A stretch of DNA of 52,715 nucleotides from Myxococcales bacterium (GTDB lineage: Bacteria; Myxococcota_A; Polyangia; Nannocystales; Nannocystaceae), in the NCBI GenBank assembly GCA_020633295.1, contig JACKDW010000006.1:462181-514895 (forward strand). The letters run 5' to 3'. Position numbers and translations under genes: made by a program. This document shows positions 6,649 through 46,831 of the stretch, piece after piece (position 1 is the first letter of the stretch; each line of letters starts with the position of its first letter). Under the pieces are notes generated by a model. That model had not been told where the DNA came from. It saw only the letters and a list, made by a program, of their open reading frames with translations, and made no database searches.

Positions 6649-7353
6649 TCAGCGGCCCATCATCCGACGCCAGTCGTCGAGCGAGCGGATCCGGAGGTAG
6701 TGATTGGTGCGCCGCTGCTCCCGCATCGTGCTCGTCGGCGTCGGCCCGTAGTCGTGCCCGGGGTACAGCACGACGTCGTCGGCGAGCTTGGCGAGCCGCC
6801 CCGTCAAGGTCTCGTACATCTGCGCGGGATCGCTGCCCGGCAGATCGACGCGGCCGCAGCCGTTGACGAACAGGGTGTCCCCAGAGACGAGCCGGTCGTG
6901 GAGCAGGAAGCACTGGCTCCCCGGCGTGTGCCCCGGCGTGTGGATCAGCTCGACCGTCACGTCGCCGAGCTGCACGCGGTCGCCGCTCTCGTGACGCACC
7001 ATGTCGCCCTCGCTGAGCCCGGTGATCTTCTTCAGGCCGTCGGCCTCGAGCTTGTGGACGTGAACGCGCGCGTCGACCCTGCCCACGAGCTCGGCGACCC
7101 CGCCCGGGACCGTGAAGCCGAGCATGCTGCCGCCCACGTGATCCGGGTGGTAGTGGGTCACGAGCGCGCCGGTGATCCGCATGCCGTCACGGCCCGCGAT
7201 GTCGATGAGCGCGTCGGTGCTCCACGCGGGATCGACGACGAGGCACTCGCCCGCGCGCCGACTCCCGATCAAGTAGATGAAGTTCGCCATGGGCCCGAGC
7301 GGGACCTGGCGAAAGTAGAGGTCGGGGTTGTTCGGCGCGTCGGAGTGGCCCAC
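6649..7353 (-). CDS. MBL-fold metallo-hydrolase (glyoxalase II-like)
   Basis: 234 aa with the HxHxDH motif (THYHPDHVGG) and downstream HTPGHTPGS and PGHDYG motifs. Confidence 0.9.
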   Translation of the reverse strand: MGHSDAPNNPDLYFRQVPLGPMANFIYLIGSRRAGECLVVDPAWSTDALIDIAGRDGMRITGALVTHYHPDHVGGSMLGFTVPGGVAELVGRVDARVHVHKLEADGLKKITGLSEGDMVRHESGDRVQLGDVTVELIHTPGHTPGSQCFLLHDRLVSGDTLFVNGCGRVDLPGSDPAQMYETLTGRLAKLADDVVLYPGHDYGPTPTSTMREQRRTNHYLRIRSLDDWRRMMGR

Positions 7354-7508
7354 GACGCTGGTTGTGACAGGCCCCGAGGCGAGGGGTCAAGACCCCGGCC
7401 AGGGCGCGCGACGCGAGGCCTCGCGCCGTCGTCGACAGGACGCGCTCGCGAGCGCGTCCCGGCGCTCGCGGAGCGACCGGGGCGCGGCGTCACGAGCGGA
7501 CGCCCGGC

Positions 7509-9140
7509 CTAGAGCGCCTCGAGCACGGCGCGGATCTCGGCGAGCTCCGCGTCTCCCGGCAGCGCGGCCTCGGCCGCGCCGAGGGACTGCAGCGCGTCGC
7601 TGAGCATCACGCTCGGGTCCGCGTCAAAGTCGCTCTGCGCCTTCAGGGCCTCGGCGTAGTCGTACACCGCCCGCCCCTTGAGCAGGTTCACCGAGCTCTC
7701 CCCCATCAAGTCGCCGAAGGTGATCGAGTCCTCGATCACGCGCTCCTCGAAGGTGATGGCGTCCTTGTAGCGCACGGTGACGCGGACGGGCGTGTCAGGC
7801 TGCACGAGCTCCGGCGCGCACGTCTCGATCTGCTGGTAGAACACCATCGCGTCGTTCGGCGCCAGGTGCTGCGGCTCGACCTCCGCCGGATCGGTGCTGT
7901 ACTCCTCGCCGCTGAACTTCACGATCGCGAAGCCGGGCGGCAGCTCGAGCTCGACCTGAACATCACGGGCGGCGACGGCGAGCGTGTTGACGAACTGCGT
8001 ATTGAAGACCTTCCAGGCCTCCTCGGCGTTCGGGATGAAGACCGAGGCGCCCTTGCCGATATCCGTGACGGTGTCCATCAGCAGGTCGTTGTACGAGGTC
8101 GCCGAGCCGACGCCCACGCCGACCATGTAGATCCCGTCCTCGTTGTTCGCGCCGGCGTGCTCGGCGATGATCTGCTCATCGGTGATGCCGACATTGGCCC
8201 CGCCGTCGCTGATGAGGACGATGCGGTTGATGCGGCCGGGATCGTAGGAGGCCGTCGCCAGCTGGTAGCCTGCCTTGAGCCCGCCCGCGAGGTCGGTGCC
8301 GCCGCCAGGCTCGAGGCCGTCGCAGATCGCGACCACCTTCGGATCGTCGGGACCCGTGACCTGGTAGCCGCCGAGCTTGATCGCGTTGGTCGTGTCCCAG
8401 CCGACGGCCGAGAGCACGTCGCCCTCCTTGAGGCTCGCGGCGATCGCACGGCAGGCCTCCTGCTGCATCGCCATCGGCGTACCCGCCATCGAGCCGGACT
8501 CGTCGAGGACCAGCGTGATGTTGAGCGGCGCGCGCTGCTCGTTGCTGACGATCTCGCTGCCGACGCCGATCTGCAGCACGAACTCGCTGCGGTCGCTCGT
8601 CTCCTCGACCTTGAGCAGCTCCGTCGTCAGCGTCAGCTGACCTGTCTCCGCGGCCGGGTAGCCGAAGGTGTAGTAGTTCATGAACTCGTAGGTGCGAACG
8701 GGCACGTTGCTCAACGAGCCGAATTGGCCGAGCACGGCCTCGCGCGCCTGCACAGGCGAGGACATCGAGTTCGAATCGTCAGGCGAGAGGTAGAGGACGA
8801 CCGGCGTCTCGCTGTCGCACTTCACCTCCTCCGGAGGCGGCTCCTCCGGCGGGGGCTCCTCCTCCGGCGGCTCCTGGCCCGTGTCGCCGGCGCTCGAGGT
8901 GCCCGACGTCCCGGGTCCACCCGAGGAGTCGTACCCACCCGACGTCCCACCTGCGCCGCTCGCGTCGGAGCCACCGTACTCGCCGGCGCTGCTCTCCGAG
9001 CCATATGAGCCGTCGCTTCCCCCGCCGTCGGAGCCCGAGTCGCCGCAGGCGACGAGCGTAAACGACGCTGCGAGACCGACGGCCAGCGTCAGGCGAGAGC
9101 CGAGATCAGAAAGGGAGAGACGGGGCGCGTATGAAATCAT
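7509..9140 (-). CDS. Lipoprotein with von Willebrand factor type A domain (YfbK-like VWA + C-terminal domain)
   Basis: 543 aa. Lipobox LVACG; Gly/Ser/Pro/Glu-rich linker; MIDAS motif DESGSM...ISDGGAN. Confidence 0.85.
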   Translation of the reverse strand: MISYAPRLSLSDLGSRLTLAVGLAASFTLVACGDSGSDGGGSDGSYGSESSAGEYGGSDASGAGGTSGGYDSSGGPGTSGTSSAGDTGQEPPEEEPPPEEPPPEEVKCDSETPVVLYLSPDDSNSMSSPVQAREAVLGQFGSLSNVPVRTYEFMNYYTFGYPAAETGQLTLTTELLKVEETSDRSEFVLQIGVGSEIVSNEQRAPLNITLVLDESGSMAGTPMAMQQEACRAIAASLKEGDVLSAVGWDTTNAIKLGGYQVTGPDDPKVVAICDGLEPGGGTDLAGGLKAGYQLATASYDPGRINRIVLISDGGANVGITDEQIIAEHAGANNEDGIYMVGVGVGSATSYNDLLMDTVTDIGKGASVFIPNAEEAWKVFNTQFVNTLAVAARDVQVELELPPGFAIVKFSGEEYSTDPAEVEPQHLAPNDAMVFYQQIETCAPELVQPDTPVRVTVRYKDAITFEERVIEDSITFGDLMGESSVNLLKGRAVYDYAEALKAQSDFDADPSVMLSDALQSLGAAEAALPGDAELAEIRAVLEAL

Positions 9141-35197: not shown

Positions 35198-35526
35198 GAC
35201 GAGCTCAGCGCGCCCGCACAGCTCGCCGTCGGTGCCGCGCCCGCCGGCTGCTCCTGCGCCCGCCGCGAAACAACATGAACAGAAAGACATGTAAATTCAC
35301 CGTTCCGCGTCGACGTGGAGCGTGTGCGGCGTGGAGCTCGCGCGCGCCGCAGTTTTTTCTGGACGCCCGCGCGCGCGATGACGATGCAACGAATCCGACG
35401 CGAGCGGCCCCCTCGCGCCGCGCGAACAACGTTGACCCCCGCGTTTGTATGTACACGCTCCGCCCCGTGACGACGCTGGCGCGAATCGCGGGCCCTCGCT
35501 ACGCTGAATCCAAAGAAGGAGATCTG

Positions 35527-36513
35527 ATGTCACTGAGGACGACGCTCACCCCGAACCGTCCCGGCCCGCTCGTCGTGTACACCCTGCTCTCGCTGGCGCT
35601 GGTCGCCGCGTGCGAGAAGCAGGAGACGCAGGCGCCGAAGTCCCACCACGACTCCGTCTCCCGCGCCGACGAGCTCGCCGCGACCCAGGGGACGCGGGAG
35701 GAGATGCGCGCGATCGCCCAGGGCTTCGCCGACGCCTTCGACGCGCTGGGCTTCGGCGACGTCGACGGCGCCGTGAAGAGCTTCTCCGAGGACATCGTGT
35801 GGGAGACCCGCGGCGGCGACGAGCGCTCGGTCAAGGGCCGCGAGGAGCTGCACGCCTTCTTCGACGCCAGCGGCCGCAAGATCGGGGTCGCGCGCGTGTT
35901 CCTGACCGACGATGACGTCGTCATCTCCCAGGGCGTGCGCGTCGATCAGTCCAGGGGCGCGGGCTTCGTCGCGATCGGCCACATCAACGGCGGCGAGATC
36001 ACCGAGGTCCAGGAGTTCCGCACCTCCGCGCCGTCGGACAGCAAGGGGCCGTCGCTCCCCGGCGAGACCGAGGTGATCAAGGAGTACGGCGACGAGGTCA
36101 ACCAGGCGCTCGCCGAGTCCCTGCACATCGCGTGGAGCAAGCGCGACTGGGCGACCATCGAGGGCTCGCTCACCCGCGACGTCGTGTACCACGACGAGGC
36201 GAGCGGCGAGACGACGCAGGGCTTCGACGCCTACAAGCGCTGGTTCGAGGGCTTCACCGGCCCCTTCCCCGACATGAGCTTCGACATCGAGGAGTCGTGG
36301 ACCGCCGGTGACTACGTGATCGTCAAGGGCCGCACGCGCGGCACCCAGACCGCGAAGTACGGCGAGCTCGAGGCGACGAACAACTCGATCGAGCTCGAGG
36401 GCCTCGACATCTTCCGGTTCGAGAGCGGCGCCGTCGCCGAGATGTGGCGCTATCACGACGCCGCCGGGATCATGGCCCAGCTCACCGCGGGCGCCGAGAA
36501 GCCGGCCTCGTAG
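35527..36513 (+). CDS. Lipoprotein with tandem SnoaL-like (NTF2-fold, ester-cyclase-like) domains
   Basis: Start ATG at 35527, preceded by AAGGAG. MSLRTTLTPNRPGPLVVYTLLSLALVAACEKQ (lipobox). Two repeats of the ...AFDA...D...W...G...G...F fold pattern. Confidence 0.8.
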   Translation: MSLRTTLTPNRPGPLVVYTLLSLALVAACEKQETQAPKSHHDSVSRADELAATQGTREEMRAIAQGFADAFDALGFGDVDGAVKSFSEDIVWETRGGDERSVKGREELHAFFDASGRKIGVARVFLTDDDVVISQGVRVDQSRGAGFVAIGHINGGEITEVQEFRTSAPSDSKGPSLPGETEVIKEYGDEVNQALAESLHIAWSKRDWATIEGSLTRDVVYHDEASGETTQGFDAYKRWFEGFTGPFPDMSFDIEESWTAGDYVIVKGRTRGTQTAKYGELEATNNSIELEGLDIFRFESGAVAEMWRYHDAAGIMAQLTAGAEKPAS

Positions 36514-36528
36514 CGACGCCGCGCGCCG

Positions 36529-37887
36529 CTACGCGCCCGCGAGCGGCGCGCGACACAGCGGCATCGTCAGGCACCGCCCGCCGCCGCGGGCGCGCGAGAG
36601 CTCGCTGCCCGAGAAGCTGAACACGGTGCGCGGCTCCTCCATCCCCTGGCGCACGAGCTCGGCGCGCTGCGCCCCCGCCAGCTCCGCGCTGATGCGACGC
36701 TCGACGAAGCCGTGCTCTCGCAGCGCGCGGATCGTGTAGGTGTTGCGGCTGTAGAGGATGATCTTCCCCGGCGCGACGCAGACCGCGTTCGCGCCGTCCG
36801 TCCACTGCTCGCGCTCCTGCTGCACGATGTCGCTGCCGCCGCAGCGCACGAGCTCGAGCCCCGCGCCGAGCTCCTCGCGCAGCACGTCGAGCACGCTCGC
36901 GCCCTCGAGCAGCTCGGGCGGCGCCTCGCGGGTGAGGCGGACGACCGGCAGCGGCGCGATCGGCCGCCCGTTCGCGCTCGAGCCCGCGATCAGCGGCTCG
37001 TGCCCGAGGAACAGCCCGGCGTCGATCTGCGTCAGGATCGTGTCGAGGTGCATCAGCGAGCGGTGCGCCGGCATGAGCACGGCGTAGACGCGCCGCAGCG
37101 CGGGCAGGTTGGGGAACAGCAGCGCGCCCGCGAGCCGCTCGATCGCCTGCGCCGAGGTGCGCTCCGAGCAGCCGACGAGCAGCCACTCGCTCGACGGCAC
37201 CAGCACGTCGCCGCCCTCGAGCGTGACGTGGCGAGCGCCCCGGCCCCGGGTGGGCGAGATCGGGGTGATCGCGGGGCCGAAGCCCGACGGCAGCCCCCAG
37301 CGCAGCGCGAAGCGGACCAGCTCCGGCTCGCGACCCCGCGCCGCGCGGGTCATGTTGCCGACCACGATCTGATCGCCGATCACGATGCAGGGGTCGCGCA
37401 TGAACATCAGGTTCGGCACGGGCCGCAGCGCCATGTCGAAGCGGTCGAGCAGGCGCGCGCGCACGCGGGCGAGCCCGATCGGCGCGTCGGGCAGCTGCGA
37501 CCAGTGCACGCCGGCGATCAGCGCGGCCGCGAGGCGCTCCGGCGCCCACCGGTGCAGCAGCTCCGCGATCGGCAGGACGCCCTCGTGCTCGCACACGCGC
37601 GCGAGCAGGGCCTGGCTCTCGGCGATCGGCGCCCGCGTGAACGCGCGCCGCAGCAGCGACTCGACGCCGTGCACGCGCGCCCCGGCGCCGCGCAGGATGT
37701 CGGTCATCACGTCGTGCTCGAGCTGCGTCTCGTCGGGCGAGAGGATGTCGTCGAACAGCAGCCGGTCGAGCTCGTGCTGCGTCATGTGGGAGATCTCGAG
37801 CCCCGGGCGACGGACGACGACATCGCGCAGCGTCCCGATCTCGCTCGTGATCTGGATCGCGGGTTCTTGCGTGCTCGCTACGGACAT
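36529..37887 (-). CDS. arcA: Arginine deiminase
   Basis: Start ATG at 37885-37887 (MSVASTQEPAIQITSEIGTLRDVVVRRPGLE). Conserved FMRDP and HLDT motifs, and a C-terminal GGGRCLTMPL containing the catalytic Cys. Confidence 0.85.
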   Translation of the reverse strand: MSVASTQEPAIQITSEIGTLRDVVVRRPGLEISHMTQHELDRLLFDDILSPDETQLEHDVMTDILRGAGARVHGVESLLRRAFTRAPIAESQALLARVCEHEGVLPIAELLHRWAPERLAAALIAGVHWSQLPDAPIGLARVRARLLDRFDMALRPVPNLMFMRDPCIVIGDQIVVGNMTRAARGREPELVRFALRWGLPSGFGPAITPISPTRGRGARHVTLEGGDVLVPSSEWLLVGCSERTSAQAIERLAGALLFPNLPALRRVYAVLMPAHRSLMHLDTILTQIDAGLFLGHEPLIAGSSANGRPIAPLPVVRLTREAPPELLEGASVLDVLREELGAGLELVRCGGSDIVQQEREQWTDGANAVCVAPGKIILYSRNTYTIRALREHGFVERRISAELAGAQRAELVRQGMEEPRTVFSFSGSELSRARGGGRCLTMPLCRAPLAGA

Positions 37888-38012
37888 CCGCCGGATTGTA
37901 GCGGGGGATCTGCGGGCCCACGACGCGGGGCGCGCGCGATCGCGGGACGCGCTGAACGTGGCGCGTCGAGCTCGCCCAGCCGCCCGCAGCGAAGGTCCGC
38001 GTACCCGCCTCG

Positions 38013-39326
38013 CTAGATGCACTCGGCGCTGAAATGCATATGCGCGCCGACCTTCATGAGCGCGCACGCGGCCCCGCACGCGACGATCGTCGCGCCGTCG
38101 TCGGACTGACGGACCGTGTAGCCGTCGTCGGTCCCGCAGTCGGAGATCGGCGGGAACACGACGCCGTCGATCGTGACCTCGACCGACGCGTCGAACTCGT
38201 CGACGGTCAACTCCGCGAGCGCCGGCGGCAGCCGGCCCACGCAGAAGGTCAGATCATCGACGAGCGCCAGCTCCTTGAGCAGCCCCGCGTGCGTGTAGGC
38301 GGCCTTGAACTTGGGGTCGTCGTCCACGCCGACCATGCCGCCCGCGAGCGCCAGCTCGTTGAGCGTCGACCAGGGATCGACGTCGGGCTCGATGTCGCCC
38401 TGCTGAAACGCCGCCTGCATCTCGATCCCGAGCCCGACGACCATCGTGAACACGCCCTCCGCGCGCGCGTCGTCGATCTCGATCCACGCCTGCGGGTTGT
38501 AGTTGTCGAACAGCTCCGCGCCCTCGAAGTCGGGGTCGCAGTTGGGCGCGCCGTCGGTGATCAGCACCATGTACTGCAGGCCCTCCCCCACCGCGTCCGC
38601 GAGCTCGTCGCGCGCGGTGGCGACCGCGTCGCCGAGCGCCCGGGCGCCGCTCATGCCCTGGGGGTACGGCAGCGCGCTCTCGAGGGTCGCCGCGACGGGC
38701 GTCATCAGCGGCACCTCGGGCTCGATCGACACCAGGCACGCGCCCGCGCCGTCGCCCGGCGCGCCGATCACCGGCGCGAACACGACGCCCATGCTGGCGA
38801 AGTCCTCGAGCTTGCTCGCGCGATCGATCACGGCCTCGCGCACGCTCTGCCAGTGGTTCATCTGCCCGGCCATCATCTGCTCGCTCTCGGGGTAGCTGCG
38901 GCTCCCCATCGCGGCCGACTTGTCGAGGACGAACATGATGTCGGGCGGCGCGATGAACAGCTCTGTCTCGAGCGGGAGGCAGCCGGTGTCGTCGACCCCC
39001 GTCGTCTCGCCGCTCGAGCCCACGCCCACGCTCGTCGCGTCCACGCCGGTCGTCTCGCTCGCGCTCCCATCGCCCGTCGACGCGCTCGCGGTCGTCGTGG
39101 ACGAGTCGCTCGCGCTCGCGCTCGAGCCCGCGCCGGTCGACGCGCTCTCGCCGTCGACCGTCGACTCCGGCGCGATCCAGTCGCCGTTGAGCGCGACGCA
39201 GCTCGAGAGGCCCAGGCCGGCGAGCGCGAGCGCGAGCGACGACCCGCGAGAGGAGCGAGCGCACGAGCGCGCGACGCCGACGGCGCCGCCGCTCAGCGCG
39301 GAGGGACGAGGCGCGCGGCGATCCAC
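38013..39326 (-). CDS. VWA-domain lipoprotein
   Basis: 437 aa. Lipobox LGLSSC, Ser/Thr/Gly-rich linker, VWA/MIDAS motif FVLDKSAAMGS...VLITDGAPN, and a Cys-rich C-terminus. Confidence 0.8.
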   Translation of the reverse strand: MDRRAPRPSALSGGAVGVARSCARSSRGSSLALALAGLGLSSCVALNGDWIAPESTVDGESASTGAGSSASASDSSTTTASASTGDGSASETTGVDATSVGVGSSGETTGVDDTGCLPLETELFIAPPDIMFVLDKSAAMGSRSYPESEQMMAGQMNHWQSVREAVIDRASKLEDFASMGVVFAPVIGAPGDGAGACLVSIEPEVPLMTPVAATLESALPYPQGMSGARALGDAVATARDELADAVGEGLQYMVLITDGAPNCDPDFEGAELFDNYNPQAWIEIDDARAEGVFTMVVGLGIEMQAAFQQGDIEPDVDPWSTLNELALAGGMVGVDDDPKFKAAYTHAGLLKELALVDDLTFCVGRLPPALAELTVDEFDASVEVTIDGVVFPPISDCGTDDGYTVRQSDDGATIVACGAACALMKVGAHMHFSAECI

Positions 39327-39591: not shown

Positions 39592-40221
39592 CTAGCCCCG
39601 CCGCAGCTTCCCGGCGAGGTCGGTGCCGATCACGAGCTGCATCGCCGAGCGCAGCTCCGGCCGCGCGGCCAGCAGCGTCCGCAGCGCGTCGCAGTCCCAG
39701 GCCAGGAAGGTCGTCTCCTCCGCGGCCGAGACCTCGGCGGAGCACGGGCTCTCGGTCAAGAACCCCATCTCCCCGACAAATTGCCCCTCGGACAGGTGCG
39801 CGACGACCTCGCCGTCGACGAGCACCTCGAGGCGCCCGCGCTCGATGACCCGCAGCGCGTCGAGCTGCTGCCCGCGCGCGAGGATCGAGCGCCCCGCCGG
39901 CGCGGTCACCCACGCGCCGGTCCTCGAGAGCCGCAAGAACTCCCGCGGGCTCAGCGATCGAAACACGCGCTGGTACAGCCGCGTCTCGCGGGCGTCGAGC
40001 GTGACGGGGCGCCGCTCGAGCAGCAGCGCGCGGATCTGCAGCGCGTTGATGCCCAGGAACACGACGTTCCAGATGATCGGCGGGAGCAGGTTGTTCGCCA
40101 GGTAGTACGGGAACAGCATGCCGATGGCGATGACCGTCAGGCACCGCAGCCAGAGGATGTCGCGGACCAGGTACGAGAGCAGGAACAGGACGTTCGCGCC
40201 GTGGACCAAGAACGCCATCAC
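39592..40221 (-). CDS. Membrane protein with C-terminal cyclic-nucleotide-binding domain
   Basis: 209 aa. Three N-terminal TM helices. cNMP domain with FVGEMGFL and a C-terminal hinge. GTG start at 40219-40221; an alternative ATG at 40216-40218 overlaps the upstream gene's stop (TGATG). Confidence 0.75.
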   Translation of the reverse strand: MMAFLVHGANVLFLLSYLVRDILWLRCLTVIAIGMLFPYYLANNLLPPIIWNVVFLGINALQIRALLLERRPVTLDARETRLYQRVFRSLSPREFLRLSRTGAWVTAPAGRSILARGQQLDALRVIERGRLEVLVDGEVVAHLSEGQFVGEMGFLTESPCSAEVSAAEETTFLAWDCDALRTLLAARPELRSAMQLVIGTDLAGKLRRG

Positions 40222-40835
40222 ACCACCCCCTTGCCCGCGAGCGCGGCGGCGTCGCGCCGACCGACCACCCGCATCGCCGCCGCGACCAGCTCCCCGGGGT
40301 CGGCGTTGTCGGCGATGTACTCGCTGCGGTGCGCGTAGACGACGACGCCGTCGCCGTCCATGACGACCGCGCCGCCCTGCTGCGCGTGGTCACCGTCGCC
40401 GCGGTACTGACGGTAGCCGTCGCCGAGCGCCCGCAGCTGCGAGTAGATCGCGCGCCCGCCCAGCGTCCCCAGCCACGCGCGCCGCAGCCCGGCGGCGGCG
40501 TAGCTCGTGCGCTCCGGGTCGCTGACGATCGTCACGCCCTTGTCGGCGAGCCCGTGGCGCAGCACGAAGTCGCCGATGTGCTGCGGCTCGCCGTTGCCGA
40601 CCATCAGCACGCGGGCGCCGAGCGCCGTCAGCTCGTGCAGCCGCGGCGAGATCGTCGCGACGTGCTTGCTGCAGCCCACGCAGCCGAAGTGGCGCAGGAA
40701 CACGATCACCGTCGGCTGCCCGAGCGCCAGCTCGCGCAGCGGCCGGCGCGAGCCCGACGCGTCCGTCACGATCGCGTCGAGCAGCGCGTCGGGCAGCCGC
40801 TCTCCCATTCGAAGCCCGTCCATCGCCGCGATCAT
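40218..40835 (-). CDS. Peroxiredoxin-like / redoxin-fold protein (AhpC/TSA-2, PRX-like2) with CxxC
   Basis: Start ATG at 40833-40835 (MIAAMDGLRMGERLPD...). Thioredoxin-fold motif VIVFLRHFGCVGCSKH. The 5' part of ORF 40218..42119 is Arg-rich antisense shadow of the kinase gene. Confidence 0.75.
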   Translation of the reverse strand: MIAAMDGLRMGERLPDALLDAIVTDASGSRRPLRELALGQPTVIVFLRHFGCVGCSKHVATISPRLHELTALGARVLMVGNGEPQHIGDFVLRHGLADKGVTIVSDPERTSYAAAGLRRAWLGTLGGRAIYSQLRALGDGYRQYRGDGDHAQQGGAVVMDGDGVVVYAHRSEYIADNADPGELVAAAMRVVGRRDAAALAGKGVV

Positions 40836-40921
40836 AGTCGCAGCGCCCGCGCGTCCCCGCGCGACGTGAACACGCGAGCGGTCGCGCGTCGTGGGCCGTG
40901 GTCGGCCCCGCTCAGCCCCGC

Positions 40922-42640
40922 TCAGTAGAGGACGATCCGGACGTCGCGGACGCACGAGAGCCCGCGCAGCAGCTCGCGCGCGAGGTAGCGAAACAGCGTG
41001 TCGAGGCAGATCTCGCGGGAGAACCCGCCGTTGCCCGTCGCCAGCAGCGGCAGCGCCATCGTGCGCACGCCCAGCGTCTCCGCGTGATAGATGCAGCTGC
41101 CCAGGATCTCGCAGATCAGGTCGCGGCTCGGGCCCGGCCCGTCGTCGCGCCCGCGTCCGCGCAGCGTGATCCCGTGGAACACGAAGCGCGGGCTCAGCTC
41201 GCCGGCCGAGGTCACGACCGCCCGACCCGCGCGCACCGGCACGTAGCGCTGCGCCTCGGCGAACACGCCCTCCCCGGCCGCGGTGCGGATCGCTCGCGAC
41301 ACGCCGCTGCGCATGCTCAGGTACTGGTCGTCGGAGCTCACGAGCGCCTCGACGTCCTGCTCGACGAGGTCCCCGCAGAGGATCGTCAGCGTGCGCTCGC
41401 CCGGGAAGCTGAAGACGTCCAGCACGCGCCCGAGCGCCGCGCCCGTCCCGTCCGCGATCTCGAGGTAGCGCGCCCGACGAGCGCGGTAGCGCTCGAGGTG
41501 AGGCCGCAGCGCGACGTCCTCCACCGCGTCCCAGGGCGAGAGCGCGTCGACGACCGGGTCGATCACCGCGAGGACCTCGGCGAAGGACGAGAAGCGATCC
41601 GACGGCGACTTCGCCATGCAGCGCTCGATGATCTCGCTCGTGCGCGCGGTGATCCCCGGGCTCAGAGACCGCGGCGGCGTGAGCGGCTCGCTCTTGTGCT
41701 TGTGCAGGATCGCGAACCAGTTCCCGCCGTCGAACGCCGGGCGCCCCGTCAGCGCGTGATAGAAGGTCGCGCCGAAGCTGTAGATGTCGGCGCGCGTGTC
41801 GACCCGCCGCGGATCCTCGGCCTGCTCCGGCGCCATGTACCAGGGGCTCCCGAGAACCTGTCCGACGAGCAAGGCCTCGTCGATCTCGCTGGGCCCGCGC
41901 GCGAGCCCGAAGTCGACGACGCGCGCCGCCCCCTCGCCGTCGACGAAGATGTTGGAGGGCTTGAGGTCGCGGTGAATGATCCCGGCCTCGGCGGCCGCGT
42001 GCATGCCGCGCGCCGTGTCGCGCATCCACCGGATCACGCGGTCCTCCTCGATCCCGCCGGGCCCCGCCTCGCGCTCGTGCGCACGCATGAGCCGCGCGAG
42101 ATCCAGCCCGTTGATCCACTCCATCACGAGCACCGGGCCGCGCTCCGGCAGGATGTCGAAGTCGTGGATCTCGACAACGTGCGGCGAGTCGATCTTCGCG
42201 AGGATGCGCGCCTCCTGCAGGAAGCGCCCCTGCGGCGCGCCGGGGAGCAGCACCTTGATGGCGACCTGCTTCTCGAGCGTGCGGTGACGGGCCCGGTAGA
42301 CCACGCCCATGCCGCCGCGCCCGACCTCCTCGAGGACCTCGTAGCGCGCGCTGACGTCGCCGCCGCCGAGCGCGAGGCCCTGGAGATCATCACCCCTTCG
42401 CGCGACGCGATCCTGGGACGGCAGCGTCTCGGCCCCGTGGGCCCACAGGGTCTCCGCGTGGGACGCGGTCTGCTTCGCGCCGCCGTCGAGCGTCTCCGCT
42501 TGCGAGGCGAGCGCGGATCCCTCGAGCTCGACAGCCGGCCGCGGAGAGGTCCGCTCGAACATCGAGTCTCGATCGCCGCGCCGCGCAGTCACGGAGTCAC
42601 CCACCGGGGCAGCATGCCCCGCGGGACACCTCACGTTCAA
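40922..42640 (-). CDS. Ser/Thr protein kinase fused to a C-terminal macro domain (ADP-ribose/O-acetyl-ADP-ribose binding or hydrolase)
   Basis: Kinase: GRGGMGVVYRA...VAIKVL, HRDLKPSNIFV, DFGLA, SPWYMAPE. C-terminal ~150 aa: TLTILCGDLVEQDVEALVSSDDQYLSMRSGVSRAIRTAAG...VVTSAGEL...FVFHGITL...SIAFP-like MALPLLATGNGGF, which matches macro-domain conserved blocks. Confidence 0.85.
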   Translation of the reverse strand: MNVRCPAGHAAPVGDSVTARRGDRDSMFERTSPRPAVELEGSALASQAETLDGGAKQTASHAETLWAHGAETLPSQDRVARRGDDLQGLALGGGDVSARYEVLEEVGRGGMGVVYRARHRTLEKQVAIKVLLPGAPQGRFLQEARILAKIDSPHVVEIHDFDILPERGPVLVMEWINGLDLARLMRAHEREAGPGGIEEDRVIRWMRDTARGMHAAAEAGIIHRDLKPSNIFVDGEGAARVVDFGLARGPSEIDEALLVGQVLGSPWYMAPEQAEDPRRVDTRADIYSFGATFYHALTGRPAFDGGNWFAILHKHKSEPLTPPRSLSPGITARTSEIIERCMAKSPSDRFSSFAEVLAVIDPVVDALSPWDAVEDVALRPHLERYRARRARYLEIADGTGAALGRVLDVFSFPGERTLTILCGDLVEQDVEALVSSDDQYLSMRSGVSRAIRTAAGEGVFAEAQRYVPVRAGRAVVTSAGELSPRFVFHGITLRGRGRDDGPGPSRDLICEILGSCIYHAETLGVRTMALPLLATGNGGFSREICLDTLFRYLARELLRGLSCVRDVRIVLY

Positions 42641-42805
42641 CCACCGCGCGCCGATATTCGCGCGCGACGGCGCGCTCCCGCGCGTCGCGTCGCGATCGCC
42701 GAGGCTCGCCGCCGCTGGACCGACCGCCGCGCCCGCTCGCGGCGCCCGCTCGACGCCGACCGACGCGTCGCCGATCGCCCCGACCCAGGCGCGCCGTGAG
42801 CCTCG

Positions 42806-45800
42806 TCAGCGCCCCGCCGCGCGGTGACGCAGGCAGTAGAGGTGGCGGTCGTGACCGCCGACGATCACCTCGAGGACCCCGTCCCCGTCGACATCTGCGG
42901 CCGTCGGCGCCGCCTCGATCGGCTGATCGGGCGTCGTCCGGAACCGCCAGCGCGACGCGCCGTCGAGGGCCGAGAGCGCGTGCACCGTGCCGTCGCGCAG
43001 CCCGAGCAGCAGCTCGGGCGCCCCGTCCGACTCGAGATCGGCGACGGTCAGCGGGCTGCCGATCTCGAGCGCGTCGCCGTCGGGCCCGGTGAAGCTCCGC
43101 TCCCATCGCGGCGCGCCGTCGCGGTCCAGCGCGACGAGCCCGCGCGCGCGCGACCCCGCGATGATCTCGAGCGCGCCGTCCCCGTCGATGTCGACGATCG
43201 CCGGCGCGCTCCGGCTGGTCCCGAGGCCAGGTATCGCCCAGCGCAGCGCGCCGTCGGCCGCGCTCCTGCACTCCACGCCGTCGTCGTGGGTCAGCGCGAG
43301 CTCGAGGACGCCATCGCCGTCGAGGTCGGCGACCGCGGGCGCGTGGACCATGCGCTGCGCGAGCGCGACGCTCCACGCGGGCGCGCCGTCGCGGCCGCGC
43401 AGCGCGACCAGCGTGCCGTCGAGCAGCGTGAGGAGCACGATGGGCTCGGCGGCGGCGCTCGGGCGGATGATGAGCGGGGTCGCCCACGCGCCGGTGCTCA
43501 GCGTCCGCCGCCACAGCGTTCGACGCAGCGCGCGACCGTCGACGGCCACGACCTCGCGGGCCGCGTCCCACGAGACCATGACGAGCTCCGCGTCGCCGTC
43601 GCCGTCGAGGTCGCCGACGCCCGGCGACGCGTACGCGGTGAACGCCTCGACCTGCTCGAGCGCCCGCGCGTCGACGCCGGAGTGACGCTGCAGGCGACCG
43701 CTCACGAGCGTGATGACGTCGAGCCCGCCGTCGTCGCGGGGGAGCAGCGCGGGCGCGCGGATCATGATCGGCCGCTCGTCGCTGGCGGCCTGCAGCAGCC
43801 CGGTGCGCGCGTCGAACAGCAGCAGGCCCGAGCTCGCGCCCACGCTGTTGTGCACGACGAGCTCGGGCTCGCCGTCGCCGTCCGTGTCCGCGACGCGCGG
43901 CCGCCCGCGCACGGCGTCCGCCGCCCGTCGCTGCCACACGACCTTGGGCCCCGTGATGACCGTGGGCCCGTTGGTGTCGACGAGCAGCTCGTCGAATCCG
44001 TCGTGGTTCGCGTCGCGCGTGCGCTGGAGGCGAAGCACGCCCGAGGTCAGCGGGACGGTGCCCAGCGGCGCGAGCGATCGCGTGTACGCGTGCAGCGTCT
44101 GGCCGATGACGCCCACGAGCTCGCGCGCGCCGTCGCCGTCCCAGTCGGCGGCGATCGGGTGGATGAGCGGCGTGTCCGCGCGCTGACGCAGCAGCTCGCC
44201 GCTGGCGGCGTCTCGCAGCTCGAGCCGACCGTCCGCGACCAGCACGACGACCTGCGGTCCGCCGTCTTCGAAGCGGAGCAGTCGCGCGCCCCCGTCCGAC
44301 GGCCGCGTCCACAGCGGCCGTCCGCCTCGCCCGTCGATCATCGCGACCCTGACGCGCTCCTGCCCGTCGGCGCCCGGTGACGGCCGCGCGTCGTCGGGGA
44401 GCAGGCTGAGCACGTCCGGCGCGCCGTCGCCGTTGACGTCGCCGATCGCGTCCTCTCGCTCGAGCGCCGAGGCGCGCGCGACGACGACGCGCCACCCCAG
44501 CGCGCCGCCGCGCGCCGCCGCGCTCCACAGCGAGTCCTGCTCGCCGGTTCGCCCGCGGCCGACGATCCGCGTCTCGCCGTCGCCCCCGACGAGCGCGTGC
44601 AGACCCAGCTCGCGCGCGCTCGGTCGAAACCCGTAGGCGAGCTGCTCATCCTCGTGCGACGTCGACCACAGCAGCGCGCCCGACCCAGCGTCGCGGGCCG
44701 CTCGTCGCCCGCCGCCGACTTCGAAGATCACCGGCGCGCGCGCGTCGACGCGCGCGTGCCGGACCCCTGCCCCCGCGCTCGCGACGCTCCACAGCGGTCG
44801 CCCCGTCGCCCCGTCGAGCGCGACCAAACGGTCCTTCCAGACACCCCACGCGAGCACGTCGAGCTGCCCGTCGACGCCGACGTCGTGGAGCAGGAGCTCG
44901 TGGTCATCACCCTCGGCGGCCTGCGCGTGGTCCGGGAGCGACGCGGCGGTCCAGCGCGGCTCGACGAGGCCGCGCGCCCGCGACGACCACGCGCGCACCA
45001 CGAGCCGCCCGTCCTCCGCCGCGACGCCGACGATGTCATCGACCCCGTCGCCGTCGAGCTCGCCGACGCGGGTCGCGGTCAGGATCCCCGGGTGGACCAC
45101 GACGCGCCACAGCTTCGCGTCGTTCCACGGGTCGTAGGCCGTCCAGACCCCGAAGTTGAGGTGCGCGAGGTCGTCGAGGCCGTCGCCGTTGATGTCGCCG
45201 AGCCAGCGCAGATCGAGGTTGACCCCCGTGACCGGTCGACTCCACGCGACCGCGCGCGTGAGCGAGACGAAGCGCGAGTGAGTCTCGCCGGCGACCGCCC
45301 GCCACGCGAAGCGCTGCTCGTAGTGCCCCTCCTTGCTCACCCGGATCGCGTGCTCGCCCGTGTCGACCGCGAAGTTGCGCAGCCGCGAGCCGTAGTCGAC
45401 GTCGTCGACGAACACGCTCCCGCCCGTCGGCTCGACGTCGAGCTCGAAGATCGCCTGCTCGTGCTGGAGCGTGAACGCGAGCTCGTGCCGCGCCCCGGCG
45501 CTGACGTCCGCGATCGCCTCGGCGGGCAGGAAGCCGGGGTCGTCGATCGTGACGCGGTGCAGCCCGGGGCGCAGGCGCAGCGCGCCGCCGGGCGCGTCGG
45601 CCGGCGCGCCGTCGACGAGCACGCGCGCCGGCGTGTACGGCCGCCCGCGCCAGCTCGCCCGGAGCACGACCTCACCTGGCTGGATCAACAGGTACACGAG
45701 GTAGCCGAGCAGCGTCAGCGCCATCGGCACGCTCACGAGCGTCAGCGCGCGACGGAGCTGTCGCACCCGCCGGCGCTCGAGCGCCGCGATCAAGGCGTGC

Positions 45801-46831
45801 ACGTCGGGAAACCGCGCGTCACGATCCACGCTCAGCCCACGCCGCAGGAGCGCCCGCAGCCAGCGCGGGATCACCCGGGCGTCAGCCGGCGGGCTCGGGT
45901 CCCCCTTGAGGATGAGCGCGCGCAGGTAGCCGAGGCGCTTGGCCTGGAACGGGCGCTCGCCGTAGAGCGCCTCCCACAGCGCGACGCAGAGGCTGTACTG
46001 ATCGCCGCGCGCGTCCTCGGCGTGCCCGAGGTAGCGCTCCGGAGGGATGTACGCCGGGGTGCCGAGCAGCGCGCCCTCCTGCGTGAGCTGATCGGAGAGC
46101 GGATCGCTCTCGCTCGCGGACAGGGGCGCGCCCGCGTCGATCGACCTCGGCTCGCTCGCCTTGCCCGACGCGCCGAGCGAGACGGCGCGCGCGAGGCCGA
46201 AGTCGAGGATCACCGCGCGGCCGCGCTGGTCGATCATGATGTTGTCTGGCTTGAGGTCGCGGTGCAGCAGCCCCTGCTCGTGGGCCGCCGCGAGCCCGCG
46301 CGCGACCTGGACGAACACCTCGACGATCGCGGGGATCGATCGTTTCTGCTCCTTGAGCCAGGCGCGTAGCGTCACCCCCTCGATGAACTCGATCGCCAGG
46401 AACACGCGGCCGTCGACGAGCCCGACGTCGTAGACCTGCGCGACGTTCGGGTGCGAGATCCGGGCGCCCGCGCGGGCCTCTCGGAGCAGGCGCGCGCGCG
46501 CGGCCTCGGCGTCCTCCGCCGCCGAGATCCGATCGGTGCGCAGCAGCTTGATCGCGACCTTGCGATCGAGCTCGCGGTCGTAGGCGCGGTGCACGACGCC
46601 GAGGCCGCCCGCGCCGAGCTTGCCGATCAGCATGAAGCGCCCGACCACGCTGCCGGTCGTGAGCTCGGGCGCTCGCTTCGCGCGCGCGGGCCCGGGCGCG
46701 AAGCCCCACGCGAGCGCCCCCGCCGCATCGGTCGCCGGCGCGTCAGCGCCTGGCAGCGCGCGCGTCGGGGCGTCGTCCGAGTCGGTCGAGTCCGCCGACG
46801 CCGAACCGACGTGATGATCCGAGAGCAGCAC
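42806..46831 (-). CDS. Receptor-type Ser/Thr protein kinase: cytoplasmic kinase, one TM helix, large extracytoplasmic FG-GAP/VCBS beta-propeller repeat region
   Basis: 1341 aa. Kinase motifs GKLGAGGLGVVHRA, HRDLKPDNIMI, DFGLA. TM LTLVSVPMALTLLGYLVYLLI. At least 10 DxDGDGxxE/D-type FG-GAP repeats. Confidence 0.85.
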   Translation of the reverse strand: MLLSDHHVGSASADSTDSDDAPTRALPGADAPATDAAGALAWGFAPGPARAKRAPELTTGSVVGRFMLIGKLGAGGLGVVHRAYDRELDRKVAIKLLRTDRISAAEDAEAARARLLREARAGARISHPNVAQVYDVGLVDGRVFLAIEFIEGVTLRAWLKEQKRSIPAIVEVFVQVARGLAAAHEQGLLHRDLKPDNIMIDQRGRAVILDFGLARAVSLGASGKASEPRSIDAGAPLSASESDPLSDQLTQEGALLGTPAYIPPERYLGHAEDARGDQYSLCVALWEALYGERPFQAKRLGYLRALILKGDPSPPADARVIPRWLRALLRRGLSVDRDARFPDVHALIAALERRRVRQLRRALTLVSVPMALTLLGYLVYLLIQPGEVVLRASWRGRPYTPARVLVDGAPADAPGGALRLRPGLHRVTIDDPGFLPAEAIADVSAGARHELAFTLQHEQAIFELDVEPTGGSVFVDDVDYGSRLRNFAVDTGEHAIRVSKEGHYEQRFAWRAVAGETHSRFVSLTRAVAWSRPVTGVNLDLRWLGDINGDGLDDLAHLNFGVWTAYDPWNDAKLWRVVVHPGILTATRVGELDGDGVDDIVGVAAEDGRLVVRAWSSRARGLVEPRWTAASLPDHAQAAEGDDHELLLHDVGVDGQLDVLAWGVWKDRLVALDGATGRPLWSVASAGAGVRHARVDARAPVIFEVGGGRRAARDAGSGALLWSTSHEDEQLAYGFRPSARELGLHALVGGDGETRIVGRGRTGEQDSLWSAAARGGALGWRVVVARASALEREDAIGDVNGDGAPDVLSLLPDDARPSPGADGQERVRVAMIDGRGGRPLWTRPSDGGARLLRFEDGGPQVVVLVADGRLELRDAASGELLRQRADTPLIHPIAADWDGDGARELVGVIGQTLHAYTRSLAPLGTVPLTSGVLRLQRTRDANHDGFDELLVDTNGPTVITGPKVVWQRRAADAVRGRPRVADTDGDGEPELVVHNSVGASSGLLLFDARTGLLQAASDERPIMIRAPALLPRDDGGLDVITLVSGRLQRHSGVDARALEQVEAFTAYASPGVGDLDGDGDAELVMVSWDAAREVVAVDGRALRRTLWRRTLSTGAWATPLIIRPSAAAEPIVLLTLLDGTLVALRGRDGAPAWSVALAQRMVHAPAVADLDGDGVLELALTHDDGVECRSAADGALRWAIPGLGTSRSAPAIVDIDGDGALEIIAGSRARGLVALDRDGAPRWERSFTGPDGDALEIGSPLTVADLESDGAPELLLGLRDGTVHALSALDGASRWRFRTTPDQPIEAAPTAADVDGDGVLEVIVGGHDRHLYCLRHRAAGR

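Follow-up and report, generated by a model that had tools for sequence, protein, structure and literature searches.

The animal proteins POPDC1/BVES, POPDC2 and POPDC3 are cyclic AMP (cAMP) effectors in which an N-out region of three transmembrane (TM) helices is followed by a Popeye domain with the cyclic-nucleotide-binding (CNB) fold. The Popdc genes have been placed at the base of the Metazoa, the Popeye domain has been described as confined to POPDC proteins, and bacterial CAP/CRP has been named as its nearest other relative (PMC4821176, PMC6562197, PMC8706714, PMC9830914). DSPE and FQVT are ultra-conserved motifs of the atypical phosphate-binding cassette of POPDC proteins (PMC8706714). 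Myxococcota and Planctomycetota are phyla with large kinase expansions (PMC11032199). In a stretch of 52,715 nucleotides from a Myxococcales bacterium (contig JACKDW010000006.1 of assembly GCA_020633295.1), here called the window, we analysed three neighbouring genes: g1, encoding a serine/threonine kinase fused to a macro domain, g2, encoding a CxxC redoxin, and g3, encoding a membrane protein with a CNB-fold domain. By profile and pairwise comparison, g3 is a bacterial full-length homologue of the animal POPDC proteins. The locus probably consists of two functional units, independent of each other and neighbours in this lineage only, namely a stand-alone kinase-macro protein (g1) and a redoxin/POPDC-like pair (g2-g3). 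A literature search found no paper on bacterial POPDC homologues and no description of the kinase-macro architecture; most subscription journals were outside its coverage, and absence from it is not proof in either case.

The Pfam model POPDC1-3 matched g3 at 55.8 bits (cut-off 28.1) and was also found to match all bacterial members of the g3 family that were compared (20/20; best E 4e-19). As a control, human POPDC1/BVES, the sequence of which was confirmed by exact look-up as POPD1_HUMAN, scored 155.9 bits over residues 41-266. A direct BLASTP comparison of g3 with human POPDC1 showed 28% identity over 170 residues (E 4e-18), and the profile of the g3 family was aligned by hhalign with the human protein at 99% (E 7e-18) over 212 columns, human residues 43-268. 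This span takes in all three TM helices as well as the Popeye domain, the membrane part of g3 corresponding to human residues 43-116. Automated annotation already labels the bacterial members accordingly (Pfam, and JGI as 'Popeye protein conserved region').

The AlphaFold2 model of g3 (mean predicted local distance difference test, pLDDT, 90.4) showed three N-terminal helices followed by the beta-roll of a CNB domain, in agreement with the preliminary description of this DNA, which had assigned to g3 three TM helices and a cyclic-nucleotide-binding domain. The CNB part was matched by Pfam cNMP_binding (51.6 bits, cut-off 27.5) and by PDB profiles of the CNB domains of PKG and PKA-R, and the closest solved structures found by Foldseek were the CNB domains of CRP, MloK1 and HCN. 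The Foldseek search of the model against PDB returned generic CNB domains only and no POPDC structure. The motifs H-x-AN, SY-x-x-DILWLR and W-N-x-x-F were invariant in the membrane part of the family. The phosphate-binding cassette reads FVGEM...C-S-A, with G149-E150 invariant, and the canonical phosphate-binding arginine is replaced, by C159 in g3 and by C, T, P, A, Q or S within the family.

Besides the order of an N-out three-TM region and a CNB-fold domain, g3 and the animal POPDC proteins have in common the motifs H-x-AN in TM1 and IWN-x-VF-x-G-x-N in TM3, RPV after TM3, and IG-x-D-x-x-x-KL in the C-helix, and both lack the canonical phosphate-binding arginine. However, g3 is only 208 amino acids long, with neither an extracellular glycosylated N-terminus nor a long disordered C-terminal tail. 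Where the animal proteins carry DSPE and FQVT, the bacterial family shows F-V-G-E-M, which corresponds to the ordinary F-x-G-E of CNB domains, and x-S-A-x-V. Furthermore, unlike the animal genes, g3 is operonic with a redoxin gene, and the bacterial family has conserved gene partners.

The partner of g3 in the window, g2, was matched by Pfam AhpC-TSA_2 (47.5 bits, cut-off 27) and carries the motif FGCVGC, with the cysteine pair C48-x-x-C51. FLRHF-x-C-x-x-C was invariant in 20 g2 homologues, and the CxxC was invariant across 21 loci; a word-index search with g2 gave 29 matches. With the AhpC-TSA_2, peroxiredoxin-like 2 and SelL-related redoxins g2 shares the thioredoxin fold, the invariant CxxC and a length of about 200 amino acids. 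It differs from SelL-related redoxins in scoring below the cut-off of NCBIfam NF040769 (SelL_rel_redox; 104.8 bits, cut-off 120), and what defines its subfamily is that a POPDC-like gene accompanies it in Myxococcota. We classify g2 as a predicted cytoplasmic thioredoxin-fold CxxC oxidoreductase that is related to SelL and falls outside the SelL_rel_redox subfamily.

Relatives of g3, scanned in one genome per species, were present in at least 307 species genomes. Neighbourhoods were counted for the best 80 loci (L007-L086), which cover about a dozen taxonomic groups and include 20 loci from Myxococcota, 28 from Planctomycetota, 18 from Pseudomonadota and about a dozen others. By tblastn with the window proteins, a redoxin gene was found to adjoin the g3 homologue in 21 of these 80 loci, comprising 19 of the 20 Myxococcota, one Nitrospinota and one 'Deltaproteobacteria' metagenome-assembled genome (MAG). 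The two genes were co-directional in 19 of the 21 pairs, with the redoxin immediately upstream and gaps of -13 to +50 nucleotides (203 nucleotides in one case); the remaining two pairs were convergent, and L088 is a third convergent case. Within the pair, identity to g3 goes down to about 40% and identity to g2 to about 33%, and the genes around the pair differ between loci. At the junction in the window (GTGTGATGG), the stop of g2 overlaps the start of g3 by four nucleotides (GTGA) or by one (TGATG), depending on the start codon of g3; this bears out the overlap and the translational coupling that had been proposed for these two genes. From gene order and overlap, g2-g3 is a conserved and predicted translationally coupled module in Myxococcota.

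In Planctomycetota, the POPDC-like gene adjoins a gene for a protein of about 1000 amino acids with six CxxCH haem motifs in 18 of the 28 loci. This hexahaem gene was co-directional and located about 100 nucleotides upstream of the POPDC-like gene in 15 of the 18 loci, and on the opposite strand in three. The hexahaem cytochrome is a second, different redox partner of the POPDC-like family.

Some further genes were seen at loci of this family. An EgtB-like gene (DinB_2 plus FGE-sulfatase) was located no more than a few kb from the POPDC-like gene in eight loci of two phyla (L018, at 6710-7999, L025, L026, L029, L030, L033, L035 and L048); genes of this kind are involved in ergothioneine/ovothiol-type thiol biosynthesis. 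Tandem duplicates of the POPDC-like gene were present in L078 (6001-6618 and 6754-7374) and L064 (1819-2439 and 2604-3218). The cultured Gammaproteobacteria Billgrantia endophytica MC28 (L078) and Marinospirillum celere DSM 18438 (L077) contain a POPDC-like gene without the redoxin, which makes both strains candidate hosts for experiments.

The g3 protein is predicted to lie in the inner membrane with three TM helices and to have its CNB-fold domain in the cytoplasm. It would sense a cyclic nucleotide or, because the canonical arginine is missing, possibly another small ligand. Lacking an output domain, g3 would most likely act by protein-protein contact, recruiting or gating the g2 redoxin at the membrane. 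That g2 and g3 are in physical contact is inferred, as are the ligands and the direction of the signal. It is a tentative possibility that g2-g3 represents POPDC signalling in its ancestral prokaryotic state, where a nucleotide or small-ligand signal is coupled to a dedicated partner with redox function; this would be the cytoplasmic CxxC redoxin in Myxococcota, and in Planctomycetota the hexahaem cytochrome c. The animal POPDC proteins would have descended from this bacterial family and may retain a related mechanism of partner gating.

The first gene, g1, encodes a protein of a different kind. Its kinase domain was matched by Pfam Pkinase (PF00069) at 143.5 bits (cut-off 31.7), and the full catalytic set is intact, i.e., the VAIK lysine, the alpha-C glutamate, HRD, the asparagine, DFG and APE. 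The corresponding residues (K103, E117, H197-R198-D199, N204, D217-F218-G219 and A244-P245-E246) were invariant in 44 family members, in which the linker helix and the macro domain were conserved to the same degree as the kinase. In the AlphaFold2 model (pLDDT 81.9; predicted template-modelling score, pTM, 0.82) residues 1-64 (pLDDT <50) and the activation loop were predicted to be disordered. The pTM of 0.82 obtained for the two-domain protein suggests that the kinase and macro domains are held in a fixed, defined arrangement. The kinase domain of g1 is canonical and has every catalytic motif, as in the Hanks-type kinases of Myxococcota and Planctomycetota. From these g1 differs in having no TM segment or extracellular sensor and in ending with a macro domain, to which a conserved linker helix connects the kinase.

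The combination of a kinase with a macro domain had been taken for an uncommon architecture in the preliminary description. This was contradicted by the database clusters, since the best 120 were all of the Pkinase+Macro type, covering about 87% of the g1 query at 51-68% identity. The kinase-macro clusters, at least 120 in number, came from Myxococcales, Gemmataceae and other Planctomycetia. Judged from these clusters, kinase-macro proteins are a large and widespread family of Myxococcota and Planctomycetota, and not a rare one.

The C-terminal part of g1 was matched by Pfam Macro (PF01661) at 53.5 bits (cut-off 22), which agrees with the earlier assignment of a macro domain. Residues 380-545 form an alpha/beta domain modelled at pLDDT >90, the best PDB relatives of which were TTHA0132 (2dx6, E 1e-14), the PARP14 macro domain and macroH2A1.1; the PDB entries matched include 3vfq and 7ny6. 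When the macro domain alone was searched against 1.84 billion representatives, 48 relatives were found at E<=1e-30. All of those sampled (10/10) were kinase fusions or fragments of such fusions, and for this reason the macro subtype appears to be dedicated to kinases, occupying the position of a sensor domain in signalling proteins. Longer proteins with this macro subtype (P0288, P0289, P0291, P0296 and P0304) were organized as kinase-macro-SpoIIE (PP2C), kinase-macro-GAF-SpoIIE, ECF-sigma-kinase-macro-SpoIIE or, in one case, with the order reversed, as macro-kinase.

Compared to MacroD-type and macroH2A-like macrodomains, the macro domain of g1 retains the elements that hold ADP-ribose. These are G397-D398, with the adenine contact in G-D-[IL] (D in 77 and N in 36 of 120 family members), and the loop L-L-[GA]-T-G-x-G-G-F containing G-T-G-x-G-G, in which T509 and G510 were nearly invariant among the 120. 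It differs from them in showing S-S-D-[DT] for N-A-A-N and M-x-x-G-V-[SA] for the G-G-G-V-D loop, and in its fusion to a Hanks-type kinase in all relatives sampled. In MacroD1/2 the catalytic residues are the second N of N-A-A-N and the Asp of G-V-D. In the alignment with TTHA0132, N-A-A-N corresponds to S409-S410-D411-D412 of g1 and the MacroD catalytic Asp to S422, so that both MacroD-type catalytic residues are absent from g1. Among the 120 members, the first three positions of SSDD were S in 112, S in 118 and D in 92; position 412, the MacroD Asn site, was D in 64, T in 43 and N in 8, and position 422, the MacroD Asp site, was S in 79 and A in 32. The preliminary description had raised the question of whether the catalytic features of a macrodomain are kept: the Gly-rich loop is, and the Asn and Asp are, by alignment, replaced.

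Because the features that hold ADP-ribose are kept and both MacroD catalytic residues are gone, the macro domain probably serves g1 as a reader or sensor, not as an eraser. Were it instead an active ADP-ribosyl hydrolase, g1 would be a bifunctional kinase and de-ADP-ribosylase. The significant similarity of the domain to MacroD2 and Af1521-type enzymes (E 1e-7 to 1e-4), its matches to NCBIfam O-acetyl-ADP-ribose deacetylase models, which stay below the cut-offs of those models, and the strong conservation of acidic and His/Cys residues by the predicted pocket are in line with such an activity. We nevertheless consider it rather unlikely, with the MacroD Asn position occupied by Asp or Thr in 107 of 120 members, the Asp position by Ser or Ala in 111 of 120, and the non-catalytic macroH2A1.1 and PARP14 macro domains among the closest solved relatives. 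Read as a sensor or targeting module, the macro domain would bind ADP-ribose, a NAD-derived metabolite or an ADP-ribosylated protein and thereby control or direct a soluble Hanks-type kinase that is predicted to be catalytically competent. A regulatory role of the macro domain agrees with the position of the GAF domain in the longer relatives (kinase-macro-GAF-PP2C).

Whether g1 belongs to one system together with g2 and g3 was judged from the genes found next to each of them. A macro match was present in only one of the 80 g3-homologue loci (L007, the kinase of which is 91% identical to g1), and 20 of the 21 pair-bearing loci contained no macro gene. All three genes together were found only in L006 (kinase 85% identical) and in L007/L089. 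In L089, not only the trio but also the downstream genes for a VWA-like protein, an arginine deiminase and a SnoaL-domain protein are common with the window, and the gene upstream differs. With these downstream genes retained and the kinases 85-91% identical, the trio is explained as ordinary synteny of close relatives. The kinase-macro loci with 67-68% identity to g1 (L001-L004) contained no redoxin or POPDC-like gene within their flanks, and both partners were likewise absent from the more distant ones (L005 from Gemmataceae, L090/L171, L170, L094, L095 and the context of P0111). The kinase-macro loci without the two partners had no neighbour in common with one another. A scan of metagenomes with a kinase-macro alignment, which relied on generic kinase-motif patterns, mostly returned other kinases, 6 of the 80 loci listed being kinase-macro.

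The preliminary description had interpreted all three genes as one signalling module. This holds for the g2-g3 pair with its occurrence in nearly all Myxococcota examined; the trio, in contrast, is co-localised only in the two close relatives and gives way to unrelated neighbours at 67-68% identity. The division into two independent units accommodates the domain identities and motif states observed, and it fits the finding that the pair is conserved and the trio is not. Several points weigh against this reading or its parts. It is possible that g1 is co-transcribed with g2-g3, the genes being on the same strand with a gap of about 98 nucleotides and no terminator found, and the number of independent kinase-macro contexts with usable flanks that were examined is about six. 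For the pair, counts from a single phylum are not independent, and the linkage of g2 and g3 could partly be inherited gene order; we argue for selection on the linkage because the flanks change and convergent cases exist. As to the macro domain, hydrolase activity need not have disappeared altogether with the MacroD Asn and Asp; in other macro classes different residues are used, and H463, C490, H493 and D481 were invariant in the family. Co-transcription of g1 with g2-g3, even if real, is not evidence of a system.

A rival explanation would make the trio a lineage-specific operon and a real signalling chain, in which an ADP-ribose-informed kinase phosphorylates, or is regulated by, the redoxin/POPDC-like pair and signals from NAD metabolites, redox state and cyclic nucleotides are thereby integrated. 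The co-directional genes, the spacer of 86-98 nucleotides without a detectable terminator and the retention of the arrangement in two related genomes, in L089 even with a different gene upstream of the kinase, are compatible with this. However, both genomes are close relatives with synteny beyond the trio, the neighbours of kinase-macro genes are unrelated at 67-68% identity and below, and the pair is nearly always found without a macro gene. In addition, the sequence of the g1-g2 spacer is poorly conserved, and in kinase-dense myxobacterial genomes, here with a second kinase directly upstream, chance adjacency to a kinase is likely. On this evidence a signalling operon of this kind is a decidedly unlikely explanation.

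Macro domains and cyclic-nucleotide-binding TM effectors occur in known defence systems, and an anti-phage or abortive-infection module had also been suggested for this locus; it might be pictured as a PD-T4-6-like defence kinase or as a Pycsar-like system with a CNB-TM effector. In PADLOC, g1 indeed matched the PD-T4-6 (235 bits) and mad6 models, and the CNB part of g3 matched Pycsar/TIR effector models (E 1e-6 to 2e-8). However, in controls the PD-T4-6 model scored 234 bits with the FG-GAP kinase next to g1 and 242 bits with a response-regulator kinase, both of them unrelated kinases, and g1 stayed far below the cut-offs of NCBIfam MAD6 (162.6, cut-off 460) and PglW (79.8, cut-off 990). The distribution of the pair tracks phylum boundaries and is not patchy, and the recurrent partners at the 80 g3-homologue loci were a redoxin or a cytochrome. 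No nucleotide cyclase was found among the scanned neighbours of g3, and none was recurrent across the 80 loci. Among the neighbours scanned there were no integrase, transposase, mobile-element or defence genes, the companion genes of PD-T4-6, MADS (MAD6) and BREX (PglW) were all absent, and the GC content was uniform, at about 72% across the whole window. g3 resembles the CNB-TM effectors of Pycsar (PycTM) in being small and combining TM helices with a CNB domain; it differs from them in the lack of an adjacent cyclase, the TM-first domain order and the other conserved partners, and it matched no PycTM model, showing CNB-level similarity to PycTIR-type models only. A defence role, which we hold to be extremely improbable, was rejected after the control with the two unrelated kinases; the PADLOC matches reflect generic kinase similarity in g1 and, in g3, similarity confined to the CNB domain.

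Coordinates of the features are given in Table 1. The three genes are real open reading frames (ORFs), all on the minus strand within 39592-42640, as had been described. The longest ORF of g1 is 40922-42640, beginning with TTG at 42640; ATG 42562 is the likely start, and the product is 100% identical to P0001 (NCBI, 546 amino acids, 'Myxococcales bacterium' MAG). For g2, the ATG at 40835 is ATC in close relatives and the next ATG, at 40823, is kept; therefore the 201-amino-acid product and a spacer of 98 nucleotides are likelier than the gap of 86 nucleotides proposed before, which applies only if g2 starts at 40835. In a three-way alignment of close relatives, g1-g2 spacers were about 86-137 nucleotides long and varied in length and sequence, the exception being a block directly before the ATG of g2 (CTATNATC). 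The outer gaps, about 243 nucleotides upstream of g1 and about 265 nucleotides downstream of g3, exceed the internal ones, so the statement that larger intergenic gaps bracket the trio was correct. No consensus promoter or terminator was found in a scan of the relevant strand.

Table 1. Positions of the features in the window, and loci in which a hexahaem cytochrome gene is the partner of the POPDC-like gene.
Feature	Position	Strand	Description and basis
g1, Ser/Thr kinase + macro	40922..42562	-	546 amino acids; ORF, Pfam, NCBI protein P0001
g1 kinase domain	41579..42343	-	about residues 74-328 of 546; Pfam Pkinase, 1e-41
g1 macro domain	40925..41425	-	about residues 380-546; SSDD replaces NAAN; Pfam Macro
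g1-g2 spacer	40824..40921	-	98 nucleotides, or 86 with g2 start at 40835
g2, CxxC redoxin	40218..40823	-	201 amino acids, or 205 from 40835; Pfam
g3, POPDC-like membrane protein	39592..40218	-	208 amino acids; alternative GTG start 40221
g3 membrane part	40012..40218	-	helices 2-15, 21-41, 45-69; AlphaFold2 and invariant columns
g3 CNB-fold domain	39595..39993	-	residues 76-208; Pfam cNMP_binding, PDB profiles, Foldseek
Hexahaem-partner loci			L032, L038, L040, L042, L044, L046, L047, L050, L053, L063, L066, L074, L084 and others

Directly upstream of g1, 42806-46831 (minus strand) encodes a second Ser/Thr kinase of 1341 amino acids that has a PEGA domain as well as FG-GAP/PQQ beta-propeller repeats. 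In the close relative L089, this FG-GAP kinase is replaced by a 1419-amino-acid HIT/DEAD-helicase/Peptidase_S24 protein. Downstream, 36529-39326 (minus strand) and 35275-36513 (plus strand) contain the genes for the VWA-like protein, the arginine deiminase and the SnoaL-domain protein that are syntenic with L089. The VWA-like protein (437 amino acids) is a probable lipoprotein, its VWA matches being weak and below cut-off. As listed, the arginine deiminase ORF (516 amino acids) runs into the VWA-like gene; its true length is probably smaller, the protein having 447 amino acids in L089. Three very long ORFs of about 633-643 amino acids, rich in Arg, Ala and Pro, overlap g1 and its neighbour in a different frame or from the other strand (40898-42799, plus strand; 40218-42119 and 42597-44528, minus strand). 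These are shadow ORFs typical of DNA with 72% GC, not genes.

As a system, the trio is of little importance, the adjacency of g1 to g2-g3 being an accident of local gene order. The parts worth pursuing are the bacterial POPDC homologues with their redox partners and the kinase-dedicated macro subtype. The latter is a large, uncharacterised and putative link between the sensing of ADP-ribose or NAD metabolites and Ser/Thr phosphorylation in Myxococcota and Planctomycetota. Animal POPDC proteins are disease-linked cAMP effectors, the biochemical activity of which reviews call poorly understood. A small bacterial homologue with redox partners, available in cultured strains, would give the POPDC field a tractable model for structure, ligand and partner coupling.

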